DNA of 29,070 nt, taken from the IMG/VR virus record IMGVR_UViG_2526164628_000008, one strand, 5' to 3'. Shown in pieces: positions 1 to 29,070 of this stretch. The position numbers and the translations under genes were made by a program. The notes below the pieces were generated by a model. It did not search any database, was not told the DNA's origin, and saw only the letters and a list, made by a program, of their open reading frames with translations. Position 1 is the stretch's first letter; every line of letters starts with the position of its first letter. The stretch is from a virus (Duplodnaviria > Heunggongvirae > Uroviricota > Caudoviricetes).

Positions 1-389
1 GATGTTTTTCAATAAAGACATACTTCATTTCAGGCGCTTCGCGAAGTATGTCGCGGCCTTTTGGAGGATAGCCAGCTCTTCATCCCGTTCTGCCAGCTGG
101 CGTTTGAGACGTGCAATCTCGGTAGACATCTCCAGTTCACGTTCAGAAGACGTCTGCTGATTTTGCTGTTTACTGCGCCAGTTGTAGAGCTGTGATTCAT
201 ACAGGCTGAGTTCACGGGCTGCGGCAGTAACACCGATGCGTTCAGCAAGCTTCAGGGCTTCACTGCGAAATTCAGGCGAATGCTGTTTACGGGGTTTTTT
301 ACTGGTTGATACTGTTTTTGTCATGTGAGTCACCTCTGACTGAGAGTTTACTCACTTAGCCGCGTGTCCACTATTGCTGGGTAAGATCA
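1..389 (-). mobile_element. IS3 (partial copy; the element continues beyond the window start)
   Basis: Terminal sequence TGATCTTACCCAGCAATAGTGGACACGCGGCTAAGTGAG on the minus strand ending at 389 matches the IS3 end as I recall it; encodes the IS3 OrfA protein. The OrfB part lies left of the window. Confidence 0.8.
25..324 (-). CDS. insE: IS3 OrfA transposase subunit (InsE-like), helix-turn-helix protein
   Basis: Translation MTKTVSTSKKPRKQHSPEFRSEALKLAERIGVTAAARELSLYESQLYNWRSKQQ... recognised as IS3-family OrfA. Start may be the upstream ATG at 331-333 (MTHMTK...). Confidence 0.8.
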   Translation of the reverse strand: MTKTVSTSKKPRKQHSPEFRSEALKLAERIGVTAAARELSLYESQLYNWRSKQQNQQTSSERELEMSTEIARLKRQLAERDEELAILQKAATYFAKRLK

Positions 390-1153
390 GTCAGTTTTAA
401 CACGTTAGCCTCTAATGTTTTGCTTGGCCACCCTGTTTCTTGTGCACCACATTGACCAAGAATTCCATAGTTGCTAGTTTGACCATCAGGAAATTCCACT
501 GTAGCAATTAGGTCAAACCCAGCATCACCAGATGTGGGAGCTTTATTTATTTCCCTTGTGTTTAAACTACAAACTCCAAGATCTTTTCCTAAAATTTGTA
601 GAGCATTCCGAAGATTCGTTCCATAATATTTTTGCCTATCATCGGAGTTAGCATCAAAAATTCTTACGGTGCCATGTGCAGGTAAGAGAGAAATCATTGC
701 AACTTTACATACTCTGGCAAAGCTCTTTGCCCAACGTTGTGCTGCTCCTCTAATCGACTTAAAGGATCTAAGTCTAGAGCAACAAAGGAGAAAAACATAT
801 ATTCTTTGTTGTTGGTTTAGATTTTCTTTAATAATTATCTCATCACCTGAAATTATAAATGGATATATCTTTCCAAGAGCGCTTTCTCTATATTCGAGTT
901 GTGTCCAAACATCTTCTAGTTGCTCTTCAAAACGATCATTTCTCTCTGCGTCTCCATCAATTTCTTCTTCAAAATTACATTCTTCATCAATTTCTTCAAC
1001 ACTTGTCATGCCGAATTTTCTTACTGAATCTAAATCATTTTTATGCAGAGAGTTACGTCCGATATAATTAATCACCGTGAGTAACTCGGCTAAATCTGCA
1101 AACAAATGGGGAGAGTTGGGATGCATAACTCCTACTTCAAAAGTCATCATCAC
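371..1153 (-). CDS. hypothetical protein (cargo gene B); acidic N-terminal half; last 5 codons and stop supplied by the IS3 terminus, so the native C-terminus is lost or altered
   Basis: 260-aa ORF, AT-rich, overlaps the upstream gene by 17 nt (operon). The stop TAG at 371-373 lies inside the IS3 inverted repeat (IS3 ends at 389). Start uncertain among three tandem ATGs at 1145-1153 or the ATG near 1126 preceded by AGGAG. Confidence 0.55.
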   Translation of the reverse strand: MMMTFEVGVMHPNSPHLFADLAELLTVINYIGRNSLHKNDLDSVRKFGMTSVEEIDEECNFEEEIDGDAERNDRFEEQLEDVWTQLEYRESALGKIYPFIISGDEIIIKENLNQQQRIYVFLLCCSRLRSFKSIRGAAQRWAKSFARVCKVAMISLLPAHGTVRIFDANSDDRQKYYGTNLRNALQILGKDLGVCSLNTREINKAPTSGDAGFDLIATVEFPDGQTSNYGILGQCGAQETGWPSKTLEANVLKLTDLTQQ

Positions 1154-8995: not shown

Positions 8996-9198
8996 TGAAG
9001 ACCTTTGCGCTACAGGGCGACACGCTCGACGCCATTTGTGTCCGGTATTACGGGCGCACTGAGGGCGTGGTTGAGACCGTGCTCGCCGCAAATCCGGGAC
9101 TGGCTGAACTGGGTGCGGTGCTGCCACACGGCACCGCCGTCGAACTGCCCGACGTTCAGACCGCGCCCGTGGCTGAAACTGTCAATCTGTGGGAGTAA
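8995..9198 (+). CDS. X: tail protein X (P2 gpX)
   Basis: 67 aa, MKTFALQGDTLDAICVRYYGRTEGVVETVLAANPGLAELG...; internal start within the longer ORF 8926-9198. Confidence 0.85.
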   Translation: MKTFALQGDTLDAICVRYYGRTEGVVETVLAANPGLAELGAVLPHGTAVELPDVQTAPVAETVNLWE

Positions 9199-11408: not shown

Positions 11409-11853
11409 GTTTAAGCGTTTTGAAGACCGGCTGACCGGGCTGATTGAATCGCTGTCACCGTCAGGGCGTCGGCGACTGAGCGCCGAACTGGCGAAACGTC
11501 TGCGTCAGAGTCAGCAGCGTCGGGTGATGGCACAGAAAGCCCCGGACGGCACCCCCTACGCGCCACGTCAGCAGCAGAGCGCCAGAAAAAAGACCGGTCG
11601 CGTTAAGCGAAAAATGTTTGCGAAACTTATCACCAGTCGTTTTTTGCATATCCGCGCCAGCCCGGAACAGGCATCAATGGAATTTTACGGCGGGAAGTCG
11701 CCGAAAATCGCCAGTGTGCATCAGTTCGGTCTGTCGGAAGAAACCCGGAAAGACGGTAAGAAAATTGATTATCCGGCGCGTCCTCTGCTCGGCTTTACCG
11801 GTGAGGATGTGCAGATGATTGAAGAGATTATCCTGGCTCACCTCGACCGTTAG
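11401..11853 (+). CDS. S: tail completion protein S (P2 gpS)
   Basis: 150 aa, overlaps the R stop; P2 order. Confidence 0.88.
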   Translation: MNEFKRFEDRLTGLIESLSPSGRRRLSAELAKRLRQSQQRRVMAQKAPDGTPYAPRQQQSARKKTGRVKRKMFAKLITSRFLHIRASPEQASMEFYGGKSPKIASVHQFGLSEETRKDGKKIDYPARPLLGFTGEDVQMIEEIILAHLDR

Positions 11854-11919
11854 TTGTGCCATTCCCGACACCTCATCGTCACATTGCCGCCGGTATGACC
11901 CGGCGGCATCCTTCCCGTT

Positions 11920-14345: not shown

Positions 14346-15538
14346 ATGAGCACAAAATTCAGAACCGTTATCACCACTGCCGGTGCAGCAAAGCTGGCAG
14401 CGGCAACCGCGCCGGGAGGGCGGAAGGTCAACATTACCACGATGGCCGTCGGGGATGGCGGTGGTAAATTGCCTGTCCCGGATGCCGGACAGACCGGGCT
14501 TATCCACGAAGTCTGGCGACATGCGCTGAACAAAATCAGCCAGGACAAACGAAACAGTAATTATATTATCGCAGAGCTGGTTATTCCGCCGGAGGTGGGC
14601 GGTTTCTGGATGCGTGAGCTTGGCCTGTACGATGATGCGGGAACGTTAATTGCCGTGGCGAACATGGCCGAAAGTTATAAGCCAGCTCTTGCCGAAGGCT
14701 CAGGGCGTTCGCAGACCTGCCGCATGGTCATCATCGTCAGCAGTGTGGCCTCAGTGGAGCTGACCATTGACACCACAACGGTGATGGCGACGCAGGATTA
14801 CGTTGATGACAAAATTGCAGAGCACGAACAGTCACGACGTCACCCGGACGCCTCGCTGACCGCAAAAGGTTTTACTCAGTTAAGCAGTGCGACCAACAGC
14901 ATGTCTGAAATGCTTGCCGCAACGCCAAAAGCCGTTAAGACGGTAATGGATGAAACGAACAAGAAAGCGCCATTAAACAGCCCTGTACTGACCGGAACGC
15001 CAACGACGCCAACTGCGCGACAGGGAACGAATAATACTCAGATCGCAAACACGGCTTTCGTTATGGCCGCGATTGCCGCCCTTGTAGACTCGTCGCCTGA
15101 CGCACTGAATACGCTGAACGAGCTGGCGGCGGCGCTGGGCAATGACCCGAATTTTGCTACCACCATGACTAATGCGCTTGCGGGTAAGCAACCGAAAGAT
15201 GCTACCCTGACGGCGCTGGCGGGGCTTGCTACTGCGGCAGACAGGTTTCCGTATTTTACGGGGAATGATGTTGCCAGCCTGGCAACCCTGACAAAAGTCG
15301 GGCGGGATATTCTGGCTAAATCGACCGTTGCCGCCGTTATCGAATATCTCGGTTTACAGGAAACGGTAAACCGAGCCGGGAACGCCGTGCAAAAAAATGG
15401 CGATACCTTGTCCGGTGGACTTACTTTTGAAAACGACTCAATCCTTGCCTGGATTCGAAATACTGACTGGGCGAAGATTGGATTTAAAAATGATGCCGAT
15501 GGTGACACTGATTCATTCATGTGGTTTGAAACGGGGGA
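14346..15538 (+). pseudogene. H: tail fibre protein H, 5' fragment (interrupted by IS2)
   Basis: N-terminal region MSTKFRTVITTAGAAKLAAATAPGG... is P2 H-like. The reading frame runs into the IS2 end at 15539 and continues as IS2-derived sequence to a stop at 15710. Confidence 0.88.
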
Positions 15539-15549
15539 TGGATTTGCCC

Positions 15550-16455
15550 CTATATTTCCAGACACCTGTTATCACTTAACCCATTACTGGCCTGCTGCCG
15601 CAGATATTCCCGTGGCGAGCGATAACCCAGTGCACTATGCGGATGCCATTCGTTATAATGCTCGAACGCCTCTGCAAGGTTCTTTGCTGCCGTTAACCCG
15701 TCTGGTTTAGGCATGATACTGATGTAGTCACGCTTTATCGTTTTCACGAAGCTCTCTGCTATGCCGTTACTCTCCGGACTCCGCACCGCCGTGTTCTTCG
15801 GTTCAAGCCCCAACATCCGGGCAAACTGCCGTGTTTCATTAGCCCGGTAGCATGAACCATTATCCGTCAGCCACTCTACTGGAGACGCCGGAAGCTCGTT
15901 GCCGAAGCGGCGTTCCACCGCTCCCAGCATTACGTCCTGTACTGTTTCACTGTCGAAGCCGCCCGTAGTGACTGCCCAGTGCAGTGCCTCACGGTCACAG
16001 CAGTCCAGCGCGAACGTGACTCGCAGTTTTTCTCCGTTATCACAGCGGAACTCGAACCCGTCAGAGCACCATCGTTGATTGCTTTCTTTCACGGCCACTT
16101 TGCCAGTATGTGCCCGTTTCGATGGCGGTACAGCGGTTTTTCGCTCAAGCAACAGCGCATTCTGGCGCATGATCCGGTAAACACGTTTGGCATTGATCGC
16201 AGGCATACCATCAAGTTCGGCCTGTCTGCGAAGCAGCGCCCATACCCGACGATAACCATACGTGGGCAGCTCTCCGATAACATGGTGTATACGGAGAAGC
16301 ACATCCGTATCATCTGAGTGACGGCTGCGGCGACCATCTTTCCAGTCATCGGTTCGTCTGAGAATTACGTGCAACTGCGCACGCGACACCCGGAGACAAC
16401 GGCTGACTAAGCTTACTCCCCATCCCCGGGCAATAAGGGCGCGTGCGCTATCCAC
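15550..16455 (-). CDS. insD: IS2 transposase OrfB (InsD)
   Basis: 301 aa, [30 protein letters not shown]...; integrase-core (DDE) transposase of IS2. Confidence 0.92.
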
Positions 16456-16778
16456 TTTTTTGCACGCCCGTATTCAACGGCTTCTTTAAGGAGTTCATTT
16501 TCCATCGTTTTTTTGCCGAGCAGGCGCTGGAGTTCTTTAATCTGCTTCATGGCAGCAGCAAGTTCAGAGGCAGGAACGACCTGCTCTCCTGCGGCCACAG
16601 CAGTAAGACTTCCCTCCTGGTATTGCTTGCGCCAGAGAAATAACTGGCTGGCTGCCACACCGTGTTGCCGGGCAACAAGGGAGACCGTCATTCCCGGTTC
16701 AAAACTCTGCTGAACAATAGCGATCTTTTCCTGTGTAGTACGCCGTCTGCGTTTCTCCGGTCCTAAGACATCAATCAT
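16413..16778 (-). CDS. insC: IS2 OrfA (InsC)
   Basis: 121 aa from [29 protein letters not shown]...; GGAG ribosome-binding site upstream. The ORF track's longer version starts outside a plausible start. Confidence 0.92.
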
Positions 16779-16874
16779 CTGCTCTCCAATGACTAGTCTA
16801 AAAACTAGTATTAAGACTATCACTTATTTAAGTGATATTGGTTGTCTGGAGATTCAGGGGGCCAGTCTAGGGGA

Positions 16875-17703
16875 TAACGGCAATGAATATTTCAAATGGA
16901 GAAGCCGCCAGAGTACTACAACAAAAGACCTGATGAATCTTAAATGGGATGCTTTGTATGTTCTTGTCAATGCCATTGTAAATGGCGAAGTCATATCAAA
17001 ATCAGCAAACGGCCTACGTATTGCTTATGGTAATTACGGATTCTTTATTCGTAATGATGGTTCAAATACATACTTCATGTTGACAAACTCCGGTGACAAC
17101 ATGGGGACTTATAACGGATTAAGGCCATTATGGATTAATAACGCTACTGGCGCTGTTTCGATGGGGCGTGGCCTTAATGTTTCAGGGGAGACGCTTTCAG
17201 ACCGTTTTGCTATTAACAGCAGTAATGGTATGTGGATTCAGATGCGCGATAACAACGCTATCTTTGGGAAAAATATAGTTAACACTGATAGCGCTCAGGC
17301 GTTGCTTCGCCAGAATCACGCTGACCGCAAGTTCATGATAGGTGGACTGGGGAACAAGCAATTTGGCATCTACATGATTAATAACTCAAGGACAGCCAAT
17401 GGCACCGATGGTCAGGCGTACATGGATAATAACGGTAACTGGCTTTGTGGCTCGCAAGTTATTCCCGGCAACTATGGCAATTTTGATTCCAGATATGTGA
17501 AAGATGTTCGACTTGGTTCACAGCAATATTATGGAGTTAACAACTGGCAAACATGGAATTTCCAGTGCCCGTCAGGTCATGTATTGTCTGGTATTAATGT
17601 TCAGGATACAGGGTCCAACTCTGCCGATAATATAGCGGGCGTTTATTACAGACCCGTTCAAAAGTATATAAATGGCACCTGGTATAATGTAGCGAGCGTT
17701 TAA
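16875..17703 (+). pseudogene. H: tail fibre protein H, 3' fragment (receptor-binding part, no own start)
   Basis: Removing IS2 and one GGGGA copy joins ...WFETGD to NGNEYFKW... in frame, giving a 673-aa H (P2 H is about 669 aa). Confidence 0.88.
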
Positions 17704-17704
17704 T

Positions 17705-18232
17705 ATGATGCACTTAAAGAACATAAAAGCGGGTAACGCTAAAACACTGGAACAGTATGAGTTAACAAAGAAACACGGAGTTATCTGGCTTTACTCTGAG
17801 GACGGAAAAAACTGGTATGAGGAAGTGAAGAACTTTCAGCCAGACACAATAAAGATTGTTTACGATGAAAATAATATTATTGTCGCTATCACCAGAGATG
17901 CTTCAACGCTTAATCCTGAAGGTTTTAGCGTTGTTGAGGTTCCTGATATTACCTCCAACCGACGTGCTGACGACTCAGGTAAATGGATGTTTAAGGATGG
18001 TGCTGTGGTTAAACGGATTTATACGGCAGATGAACAGCAACAACAGGCAGAATCACAAAAGGCAGCGTTACTTTCCGAAGCGGAAAGCGTTATTCAGCCA
18101 CTGGAACGCGCTGTCAGGCTGAATATGGCGACGGATGAGGAACGTGCACGACTGGAGTCATGGGAACGCTACAGCGTTCTGGTCAGCCGTGTGGATCCTG
18201 CAAATCCTGAATGGCCGGAAATGCCGCAATAA
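17705..18232 (+). CDS. G: tail fibre assembly chaperone G (P2 gpG)
   Basis: 175 aa immediately after H; [30 protein letters not shown]... Confidence 0.88.
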
Positions 18233-18447: not shown

Positions 18448-19347
18448 ATGAGTGGTATTCGTATAACTCAGGCTATTGATAACAATCAGATTTTAGTCAA
18501 TGTAAATACTTTTAATTATAGTGTTAATCCCTATCCACTCAAATGTCCTGACCCAAATTGCTCTGCTCATTTGGTGTATGTCAAAAGCCATATTCGTCGG
18601 AGTTTTAATAAAACCTTGCATATCCCCGCCTTCTTTAGACTGGAAAAAAATTTCACGCATGACAAATTATGTCAGTATGGAACTTCAGGATTGAATACAA
18701 TTTATGCAAGTGATTCCAGTCATGATATCAGCCGTGCGCTTGCCACAGGTAATAATATATTCCGTATACATATACTCGATGAAGATGATATCTCTAAATT
18801 AAGCAGAAAAGCTGCAGCTATGCAGGCAAATCCACCTTCTGATACTACAGACCGCGTTTATGTCAAGAGAGGTCGGAAAGCCCCCTATGTGAAGAACATG
18901 GATAGCTTACGGGAGATCTATGAATATGGAAAAGCTCACCCCAACAAGAGAAACAGCATAAAAATTGTTACTGGAACAAGTACTGTAACGTGGTCTGATT
19001 TTTTCTATGAAACAACGCAGTTAGAACGATTGTCAACTTACCTCCAGAAAGTAAAAATAGCTCAGGTTGCTGTAATTATGAAAGTGCATGTGGCGAGAAT
19101 CCCTATGGCGAAATTTAATTATCGACACTTCATTGAAGGTTCGCCAATGAGGATAAAAGGGGGCTTTAATATATATCCTACGATTCAATTAGGAAATGTT
19201 ACTCCAAAATTATTTCCGTTGAGTAGCATTGTCATGGTACTCGGTAAATTTACTATTCCAACAAATAGAAAAATGATAATGGATCCAACATTTGAGCGTG
19301 AAGTCAGAACCATAGTTTCTAGTGAAGAGCAAGTGCTAATTCTTTGA
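18448..19347 (+). CDS. hypothetical protein, cargo at the Z/fun position between G and FI
   Basis: 299-aa ORF in an AT-rich island with GGAGG ribosome-binding site (TATGGAGGAGTAATG). No recognisable domain; Cys/His-containing N-terminus (CPDPNCSAHLVYVKSH). Whether it is the P2 fun(Z) homologue is untested. Confidence 0.65.
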   Translation: MSGIRITQAIDNNQILVNVNTFNYSVNPYPLKCPDPNCSAHLVYVKSHIRRSFNKTLHIPAFFRLEKNFTHDKLCQYGTSGLNTIYASDSSHDISRALATGNNIFRIHILDEDDISKLSRKAAAMQANPPSDTTDRVYVKRGRKAPYVKNMDSLREIYEYGKAHPNKRNSIKIVTGTSTVTWSDFFYETTQLERLSTYLQKVKIAQVAVIMKVHVARIPMAKFNYRHFIEGSPMRIKGGFNIYPTIQLGNVTPKLFPLSSIVMVLGKFTIPTNRKMIMDPTFEREVRTIVSSEEQVLIL

Positions 19348-26423: not shown

Positions 26424-26504
26424 ATCCTCAATTTGCCTGCTGCTTAATGCATTGCAGATGATTTGCTTCCGTTATACTAGCGTCAGTTGATAGCGGGAGT
26501 ATTT

Positions 26505-28606: not shown

Positions 28607-29070
<464 letters not shown>

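Follow-up and report, generated by a model that had tools for sequence, protein, structure and literature searches.

A complete IS2 isoform interrupts tail-fibre gene H in a P2-like prophage of an ETEC lineage

Our analysis supports the view that a complete IS2, bounded by a 5-bp target-site duplication, interrupts the P2-type tail-fibre gene H in a P2-like prophage. This prophage occupies the interval between cpxP and fieF in an ETEC lineage, one member of which is TW10590, an archetypal STh/CFA-I/CS21 ETEC isolate (PMC6446980). The stretch of DNA analysed here (29,070 nt, hereafter the window) is the entire draft contig AIHF01000031.1. We consider it almost certain that codon 398 of H in this prophage was hit by transposition of an IS2 isoform, which duplicated GGGGA and inactivated the gene.

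Results

Direct reading of the sequence placed a complete IS2 of 1331 bp on the minus strand of the window, between two copies of the pentamer GGGGA (Table 1). Its low-coordinate end opens with TGGATTTGCCCC and corresponds to the right end (IRR), and its high-coordinate end closes with GGGGGCCAGTCTA, which is the left end (IRL) in reverse complement. The element breaks codon 398 of H, so that a continuous full-length frame is restored only in silico: joining positions 14346-15538 to 16875-17703 yields 2022 nt that read through 673 codons to a single terminal stop. The insertion point lies inside the Gp34_trimer domain (Pfam, residues 375-485 of the rebuilt protein), within the conserved motif WFETGD/NGNEYFKW (the slash marks the insertion) and upstream of the receptor-binding part.

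Table 1. Features of the interrupted H region, in coordinates of the window.
Feature	Position	Strand	Remarks
H 5' fragment, codons 1-397 + 2 bases of codon 398	14346..15538	+	98% protein identity to P2 gpH
Left target-site duplication GGGGA	15534..15538	.	single copy at the PSUO2 empty site
IS2 isoform, 1331 bp	15539..16869	-	IRR at low-coordinate end, IRL at high-coordinate end; transposase genes antisense to H
Extension of the truncated H ORF into IS2	15539..15710	+	1 base of the hybrid Asp codon, 56 codons, TAG stop
IS2 orfB (InsD/TnpB, 301 aa)	15550..16455	-	Pfam rve, rve_3, HTH_21
IS2 orfA (InsC/TnpA, 121 aa)	16413..16778	-	protein identical to K-12 InsC; Pfam HTH_Tnp_1
304-aa ORF	16789..17703	+	27 codons outward from the IS2 left end, in frame with H residues 397-673
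Right target-site duplication GGGGA	16870..16874	.	direct reading and PSUO2 comparison
H 3' fragment, codons 399-673 + stop	16875..17703	+	rest of Gp34_trimer and P1 S-like distal receptor-binding part
Tail-fibre assembly gene G, intact	17705..18232	+	Pfam Caudo_TAP, phrog_136, 94% identity to P2 gpG

Pfam, PHROGs and a comparison with phage P2 were used to check the identity of H. As in a P2-type H, the N-terminal fibre domain (Phage_tail_fib PF12571, residues 1-151, E = 1.7e-60) is followed by fibre repeats (Phage_fiber_2 PF03406, residues 170-210), and the gene sits between baseplate gene I, recognized by Tail_P2_I, and chaperone gene G, recognized by Caudo_TAP. The protein is uneven in its relatedness: identity to P2 gpH is 98% over residues 1-397 and only 26% over residues 441-673, and residues 184-673 share about 79% identity with tail fibre S of P1. 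The insertion point is located approximately 40 residues upstream of the place where similarity to P2 gpH drops. The split gene is a mosaic P2 H with a P1 S-like tip.

Uninterrupted alleles of H were readily found. The rebuilt gene matches the intact H of E. coli PSUO2 (NZ_CP011915.1) at 2020 of 2022 bases, and the empty site of PSUO2 contains a single GGGGA (...GAAACGGGGGATAACGGC...). A further 156 complete E. coli genomes cover at least 80% of the rebuilt H; among the 40 best places listed, 39 were such places, all of them single unbroken pieces. Furthermore, a P2-like phage genome (OU784549.1 / NC_070904.1) carries an intact 673-aa H with 99.1% protein identity. The original prediction had proposed that a complete IS2 flanked by GGGGA repeats splits H, and that removal of the element and one repeat restores a 673-codon frame. 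Coordinates, pentamers and the empty site in other genomes agree with the former claim, and the 2022-nt gene rebuilt here, only 2 bases off PSUO2, bears out the latter. Its statement that full-length fibre cannot be encoded as sequenced follows directly from the sequence.

The element has the length and the canonical ends of IS2. Over their terminal 45 nt, IRL and IRR are identical to those of K-12 IS2A at 45/45 and 44/45 positions, respectively, and the ends of the two copies coincide exactly. Overall, 57 substitutions and no indel separate the two (95.7% identity). In the ISfinder convention, isoforms of an insertion sequence share more than 95% DNA identity, a threshold that the identity to IS2A just exceeds. 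Both orfA and orfB are open. The orfA product matches NCBIfam NF006928 'IS2 repressor TnpA' (276 bits, cutoff 229), and the orfB product, which carries the rve (DDE) domain and differs from its K-12 counterpart by 11 aa substitutions (96.3% protein identity), matches NF006918 'IS2 transposase TnpB' (706 bits, cutoff 597). As in K-12, an A6G motif for programmed -1 frameshifting lies at IS coordinate 409 (window 16455-16461). In TW10590, PGAP annotates a programmed-frameshift transposase that it names only 'IS3 family transposase', not 'IS2 family'. Full-length copies 100% identical to this element occur in many E. coli genomes at many different sites, which is indirect evidence that it may be active in transposition. 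The element is a widespread IS2 isoform, not a canonical copy.

A search of 5426 complete genomes for IS2 in tail-fibre genes returned three cases, the P2-like H genes of TW10590 and TW10573 and a tail fibre of VL40. These three host genomes carry 18 to 30 IS2 places each, compared to a median of 3 per genome, a distribution consistent with simple mass action where IS2 is abundant. The insertions occurred independently in three different prophages, each no more than about 0.4 kb downstream of a conserved DNA segment that all three have in common, as would be expected if tail-fibre genes, or a conserved linker motif common to the fibre genes of P2, P1 (S) and the VL40 prophage, were a preferred IS2 target or a site of selected inactivation. 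Nonetheless, we regard this explanation as very unlikely: the search was built around that very segment, which makes the clustering an ascertainment effect; only 3 of the 5426 genomes are concerned, all with IS2-rich hosts; and the three sites and their duplications (GGGGA, AGCCC and CAAAA) differ, without any consensus that could define a common target sequence.

All three insertions have the same orientation. A synthetic query for the opposite one, made of H positions 15339-15538 joined to the IRL end, covered at least 80% in 0 genomes, versus 3 for the orientation observed. Such a sample is too small to support an orientation bias of IS2 near the conserved H segment (three of three, p = 0.25).

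Two ORFs extend across the junctions. The first, at 14346-15710, encodes 454 aa, namely 397 native codons, a hybrid codon and 56 IS2-encoded codons; the hybrid codon GA/T still specifies Asp, as in intact H. An IS2-derived tail of 57 aa had been predicted, correctly to within this hybrid codon. PGAP annotates the H 5' fragment of TW10590 as a pseudogene, 'missing C-terminus'. The second is the 304-aa ORF, which retains the greater part of the Gp34_trimer domain and all of the distal part, and which PGAP annotates as a hypothetical protein (WP_000202503.1). This ORF was absent from the original prediction.

In principle, the 304-aa ORF could supply the C-terminal part of the fibre separately. 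It is an open, in-frame CDS with its distal part whole, and the split might then be functional, with the ORF product assembling with the N-terminal fragment or acting alone as a free receptor-binding protein. We give this possibility very little credence. Upstream of its ATG we found no Shine-Dalgarno-like sequence, and a consensus scan of positions 15300-17100 returned no promoter-like site, compared to 1.9 expected by chance. Moreover, in TW10573 the same IS2 ATG and the downstream fragment are in different frames, which makes the in-frame fusion seen here a 1-in-3 accident, and no mutation postdating the insertion speaks to selection. Equally improbable, in our judgment, is an extended form of this proposal in which the ORF delivers the P1 S-like distal half and the uniform antisense orientation reflects selection for split genes or an orientation rule of IS2 in late phage operons. 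The fusion of IS2 codons to H residues 397-673 is probably fortuitous, and the 454-aa and 304-aa ORFs are halves of one tail-fibre gene with added IS2 sequence, not independent genes.

Misassembly at the IS2 junctions, named with the original prediction as something that would refute it, was also examined. Both junctions between IS2 and H are identical base for base in the complete circular chromosome of TW10590. The left junction is also present at the end of PNRR01000029.1, a contig that stops 226 nt into IS2, and the right junction at the start of CBCSBF010000058.1, which begins 119 nt before the end of IS2, both with 0 mismatches. A second EHX protein accession exists for the junction ORF. 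Among the 5426 complete genomes, both junctions are unique to TW10590 and could be used as a marker of the lineage. Although the window is a draft contig with both ends in repeated IS elements (IS3 at positions 1-389 and IS621 at the right end) and IS2 is multicopy in the lineage, with about 20 places in TW10590, a copy of IS2 misplaced inside an H that is really intact is extremely unlikely given the perfect 5-bp duplication, the exact canonical ends, the identical junctions of the circular chromosome and the two further drafts that break inside IS2 yet carry the same left or right junction, all under accessions and with contig structures different enough to argue against a single common read set.

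The prophage has the gene order of P2: int, C, cox, A, Q P O N M L X Y K, lysA-lysB-lysC, R S V W J I H G, FI FII E T U D and ogr, as annotated by PGAP in the TW10590 copy, which is 99.99% identical. In that copy, H is the only pseudogene and all other genes from int to ogrK are annotated as intact. G closes the V-W-J-I-H-G operon, and no other gene of the operon lies downstream of the insertion; the annotation of the P2 record gives the same operon and a terminator after G. This operon assignment rests on conserved gene order, as the late promoter lacks homology support: the 80 nt preceding V, where P2 has its pV promoter and Ogr site, are unrelated to P2 (27/80 identical). The 299-aa gene that follows G gave no match in PADLOC, Pfam or NCBIfam. 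Cargo and lysis genes had both been predicted to be intact. The lysis genes are annotated as such in the TW10590 copy; for the cargo the prediction does not fully hold in the window, where an IS3 end at positions 1-389 takes the place of the final 232 nt of a cargo gene that encodes 329 aa and is complete in TW10590. The junction between IS3 and the prophage (window 1-700) was absent from all complete E. coli genomes searched. The window comes from a relative of TW10590 and not from that strain.

Discussion

We propose the following course of events. The IS2 isoform transposed antisense into codon 398 of H, duplicating GGGGA. Translation from the H start now stops 57 codons into IS2, giving a product that lacks the 275 C-terminal residues, including the P1 S-like distal, receptor-binding part, and that would presumably not assemble into functional trimeric fibres. 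Expression of the chaperone gene G may be lowered as well, by some 1.1 kb of untranslated antisense IS2 RNA and by the loss of translational coupling between H and G. Such polarity on G, an effect absent from the original prediction, is likely; since no promoter or terminator that could account for it, or for expression of the 3' fragment, was found by scanning positions 15300-17100, we infer it from Rho-dependent termination and translational coupling. Truncation of H and reduced expression of G would leave particles, if made, without fibres and non-infectious.

H is an essential late gene of P2, and prophages of the P2 type are not SOS-inducible. From P2 genetics it is reasonable to infer that the prophage probably fails to produce infectious particles. 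For TW10590-type ETEC, the prediction is a P2-like prophage that keeps its other genes but can no longer spread as a phage. A co-resident prophage could complement H in trans, and TW10590 has a second place matching H.

The insertion is recent, because the H fragments are otherwise undamaged, the IS2 is identical to other copies and H is the sole pseudogene of the TW10590 prophage. Its presence in several assemblies of the lineage fits vertical inheritance of one event. Our literature search found no paper on IS2 in the H gene studied here; the only precedent it returned was an insertion in the sit gene of pSvP1. The case is an ordinary inactivation of a prophage by a common insertion sequence of E. 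coli. It has little general significance and stands as a clean, well-bounded IS inactivation of a prophage in an IS2-rich ETEC lineage.

Several known systems frame this event. The K-12 element IS2A (IS3 family, IS2 group), which likewise splits a gene (yaiX), has in common with the isoform its length of 1331 bp, an identical IRL, OrfA, the frameshift coordinate and a 5-bp target duplication, whereas the isoform differs by its 57 nucleotide substitutions, 11 aa changes in OrfB and 1 substitution in IRR. In phage P2, the gene order and the operon position of H are the same, with a gpH of 669 codons compared to 673 here; unlike in P2, the distal part of H is replaced by a P1 S-like sequence and the gene is interrupted by IS2. 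Both uninterrupted relatives lack IS2: OU784549.1 shares G and the 299-aa gene downstream of it with the window, whereas PSUO2 has an HNH endonuclease gene after G in place of the latter. TW10573 H and the VL40 tail fibre also contain IS2 with 5-bp repeats in a tail gene, and their frames are restored upon its removal; however, positions, pentamers and prophages differ, and their IS2 copies are canonical (3 to 5 mismatches to K-12) instead of the isoform. Finally, the P1-like plasmid pSvP1 bears IS2 in its sit gene, flanked by 5-bp direct repeats (ACCAA), and resembles the H case as an insertion inside a phage tail gene that differs in position and pentamer (PMC6906374).

Interruption of the tail-fibre gene H by IS2

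The original prediction placed a complete IS2 between identical GGGGA pentamers in the P2-type tail-fibre gene H, and direct reading and computation confirmed all of its numbers. On the plus strand, the element starts with TGGATTTGCCCCTATATTTCCAGACA and ends with ...CAGGGGGCCAGTCTA, and its transposase genes are antisense to H. Removal of IS2 and one repeat joins positions 14346-15538 and 16875-17703 into a continuous frame of 2022 nt (673 codons plus stop) devoid of internal stops, as had been proposed. The ORF that begins at the H start in the window encodes instead 454 aa and ends at a TAG codon (15708-15710). It comprises 397 whole native codons, one hybrid codon made of GA from H and T from IS2, which keeps the native Asp398, and 56 codons from IS2, in agreement with the anticipated truncated fibre bearing a 57-aa IS2-derived tail. 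Since the frame is interrupted, no full-length H can be translated.

Coordinates of the features discussed in the text (window coordinates unless a piece is named; L002 and L003 are pieces of the E. coli TW10573 and VL40 genomes).
Feature	Position	Strand	Remarks
Cut 329-aa cargo gene	~158-1153 (ORF 371-1153)	minus	
ParB-N-terminal-domain protein, 373 aa	1137-2258	minus	Many PADLOC PD-Lambda-5_A models, best E = 1.6e-28
GGGGA target duplication, left copy	15534-15538		Directly before IS2
IS2 element	15539-16869	transposase genes on minus	1331 bp; direct reading and computation
304-aa ORF	16789-17703	plus	ATG 81 nt inside IS2 left end, in frame into H residues 397-673
GGGGA target duplication, right copy	16870-16874		Directly after IS2
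299-aa gene	18448-19347	plus	Between G and sheath gene FI; end-to-end phrog_7195 (unknown function)
TW10573 IS2	L002 4302-5632	antisense to fibre gene	Duplication AGCCC; ~30 codons further into P2-like H
VL40 IS2	L003 4336-5666	antisense to fibre gene	Duplication CAAAA; tail-fibre gene of unrelated prophage

Of 5426 complete E. coli genomes searched with the rebuilt 2022-nt H, 157 contain a place spanning 80% or more of the gene, and this place was one unbroken piece in all of the best 40 of the 157 except TW10590. The closest among the matches listed, PSUO2, differs from rebuilt H by 2 of 2022 bases, both within the first 66 nt, and its empty site carries a single GGGGA (...GAAACGGGGGATAACGGC...). 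Likewise, the P2-like phage genome OU784549.1 / NC_070904.1 carries an uninterrupted gene whose 673-aa product is 99.1% identical to rebuilt H, with G and then the 299-aa gene after it, as in the window.

The junctions recur in independent assemblies

The window is the entire draft contig AIHF01000031.1 (GCA_000250315.2), which begins in one repeat (IS3, positions 1-389) and ends in another (IS621), so the caveat that the IS2 junctions could result from misassembly or sequencing error was worth testing. A left-junction query (200 nt of H and 200 nt of IS2) found a full match at 100% identity in only one complete genome, TW10590 (NZ_CP035850.1), which is 99.99% identical to the window across 28.7 kb. 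The left junction is also present in the draft PNRR01000029.1 (GCA_003980305.1), which ends 226 nt into IS2, and the right junction in CBCSBF010000058.1 (GCA_965137445.1), which begins 119 nt before the IS2 end, both with 0 mismatches to the window. Together, these independent assemblies settle the question against misassembly, and the insertion stands. Because they share it, the insertion is taken to be fixed in a small lineage. The junction ORF has two separate EHX protein accessions.

The sole differences between the window and TW10590 over the 28.7 kb are a C/T substitution at 9008 in tail gene X and a 1-nt deletion at 26424 between ogr and fieF, at the right end of the prophage. At the right end of the window (~28826-29070, coordinates transferred from TW10590), ~245 nt belong to the transposase gene of an IS621 (IS110-like) located downstream of pfkA. 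The contig thus stops on either side in a repeated IS element, yet the central IS2 was assembled through.

Structure of H and predicted consequences of the insertion

Rebuilt H matches PHROG tail-fibre families over its full length and contains the Pfam domains Phage_tail_fib (residues 1-151), a fibre repeat (170-210) and Gp34_trimer (375-485). It is 98% identical to P2 gpH at residues 1-397, 77% at 398-440 and 26% at 441-673, whereas residues 184-673 are ~79% identical to tail-fibre protein S of P1 and D6. These segment identities indicate that rebuilt H is a mosaic, namely P2 H carrying a distal module similar to P1 S. IS2 interrupts the conserved motif WFETGD|NGNEYFKW in the trimerisation domain, at a point upstream of the module boundary.

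H is flanked by P2 I upstream and by the Caudo_TAP chaperone gene G downstream, whose product is 94% identical to P2 gpG despite the replaced distal part of H. In the P2 record, V-W-J-I-H-G are annotated as a single operon whose terminator follows G, which leaves G as the sole gene downstream of the insertion. In the region 11846-11919 of the window, gene S ends at 11853, directly before V; the 80 nt upstream of V show no resemblance to the P2 pV promoter/Ogr-binding region (27/80 identical), hence the late promoter of the V operon is not identifiable by P2 homology.

The 454-aa product would be missing the entire distal part and the greater share of the trimerisation domain, and therefore working fibres are not expected. 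Transcription would have to cross ~1.1 kb of untranslated antisense IS2 sequence. G starts 1 nt after the H stop, and Rho-dependent polarity together with lost translational coupling would probably reduce G too. Particles, if made, would be devoid of fibres and non-infectious.

A 304-aa ORF fuses the IS2 left end to the H 3' fragment and is labelled by PGAP as a hypothetical protein (WP_000202503.1). Neither a promoter-like site nor a Shine-Dalgarno-like sequence was found for this ORF, and in the independent TW10573 insertion the same IS2 ATG is out of frame. We regard it as a fortuitous fusion.

Lysis and cargo genes

The original prediction took lysis and cargo genes to be intact, which is supported for the former but not entirely accurate for the latter in this contig. 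Apart from H, all prophage genes of the TW10590 copy from int (adjoining cpxP) to ogrK (adjoining fieF) are annotated by PGAP as intact, including holin, endolysin, lysA, lysB and lysC. In the window, one cargo gene is cut: a 389-nt IS3 terminus with orfA on the minus strand occupies positions 1-389, in place of the 3' 232 nt of a hypothetical 329-aa gene that TW10590 carries complete. This IS3-prophage junction was found in no complete E. coli genome, so at least this second IS hit in the same prophage separates the strain of the window from TW10590.

The 329-aa gene adjoins the ParB-N-domain gene, and in TW10590 a DNA cytosine methyltransferase gene (DruM/MTase_II-like) lies next to them, all between gene A and portal gene Q. 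The ParB-N gene and its partner, cut here by IS3, may constitute a two-gene anti-phage cargo system. The 299-aa gene, without match in Pfam, NCBIfam or PADLOC, is a candidate lysogenic-conversion or defence gene; its position is occupied by fun(Z) in P2 and by an HNH endonuclease in PSUO2, while OU784549.1 carries the same gene.

The IS2 copy and other IS2 insertions in tail-fibre genes

Compared to IS2A of K-12 MG1655, the element has equal length, no indels and 57 substitutions (95.7% identity). Its left inverted repeat is identical, its right one has 1 change, and the A6G frameshift motif occupies the same coordinate. OrfA (121 aa) is protein-identical despite dense substitutions in the orfA region, whereas OrfB (301 aa) has 11 substitutions. 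The element scores above the curated cutoffs of the NCBIfam models 'IS2 repressor TnpA' and 'IS2 transposase TnpB', and matches Pfam HTH_Tnp_1, rve and rve_3. Full-length, 100% identical copies occur at many unrelated sites in many genomes. The element is a complete and probably active IS2 isoform. Since the H fragments lack further lesions and identical IS2 copies exist elsewhere, the insertion looks recent.

The left-junction search yielded two more independent cases, TW10573 and VL40, whose frames were restored once IS2 and one repeat were removed, and whose IS2 copies are canonical (3-5 mismatches to K-12). In all three cases IS2 runs antisense to the fibre gene it interrupts (p = 0.25); a search with a synthetic junction found none in the opposite orientation, and GGGGA, AGCCC and CAAAA share no consensus. 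Clustering near the conserved segment is an ascertainment effect, as the search was anchored on that segment. TW10590, TW10573 and VL40 have 18-30 IS2 places each, compared with a median of 3 per genome, and this richness is a sufficient explanation for the tail-fibre hits.

The analysis supports the original reading of a tail-fibre gene split by IS2, and RefSeq already marks H as a pseudogene beside an IS3-family transposase. The insertion is a classic case of an IS breaking a structural gene of a prophage. It has a published precedent in the P1-like plasmid pSvP1, whose sit gene contains an IS2 with 5-bp repeats (PMC6906374).
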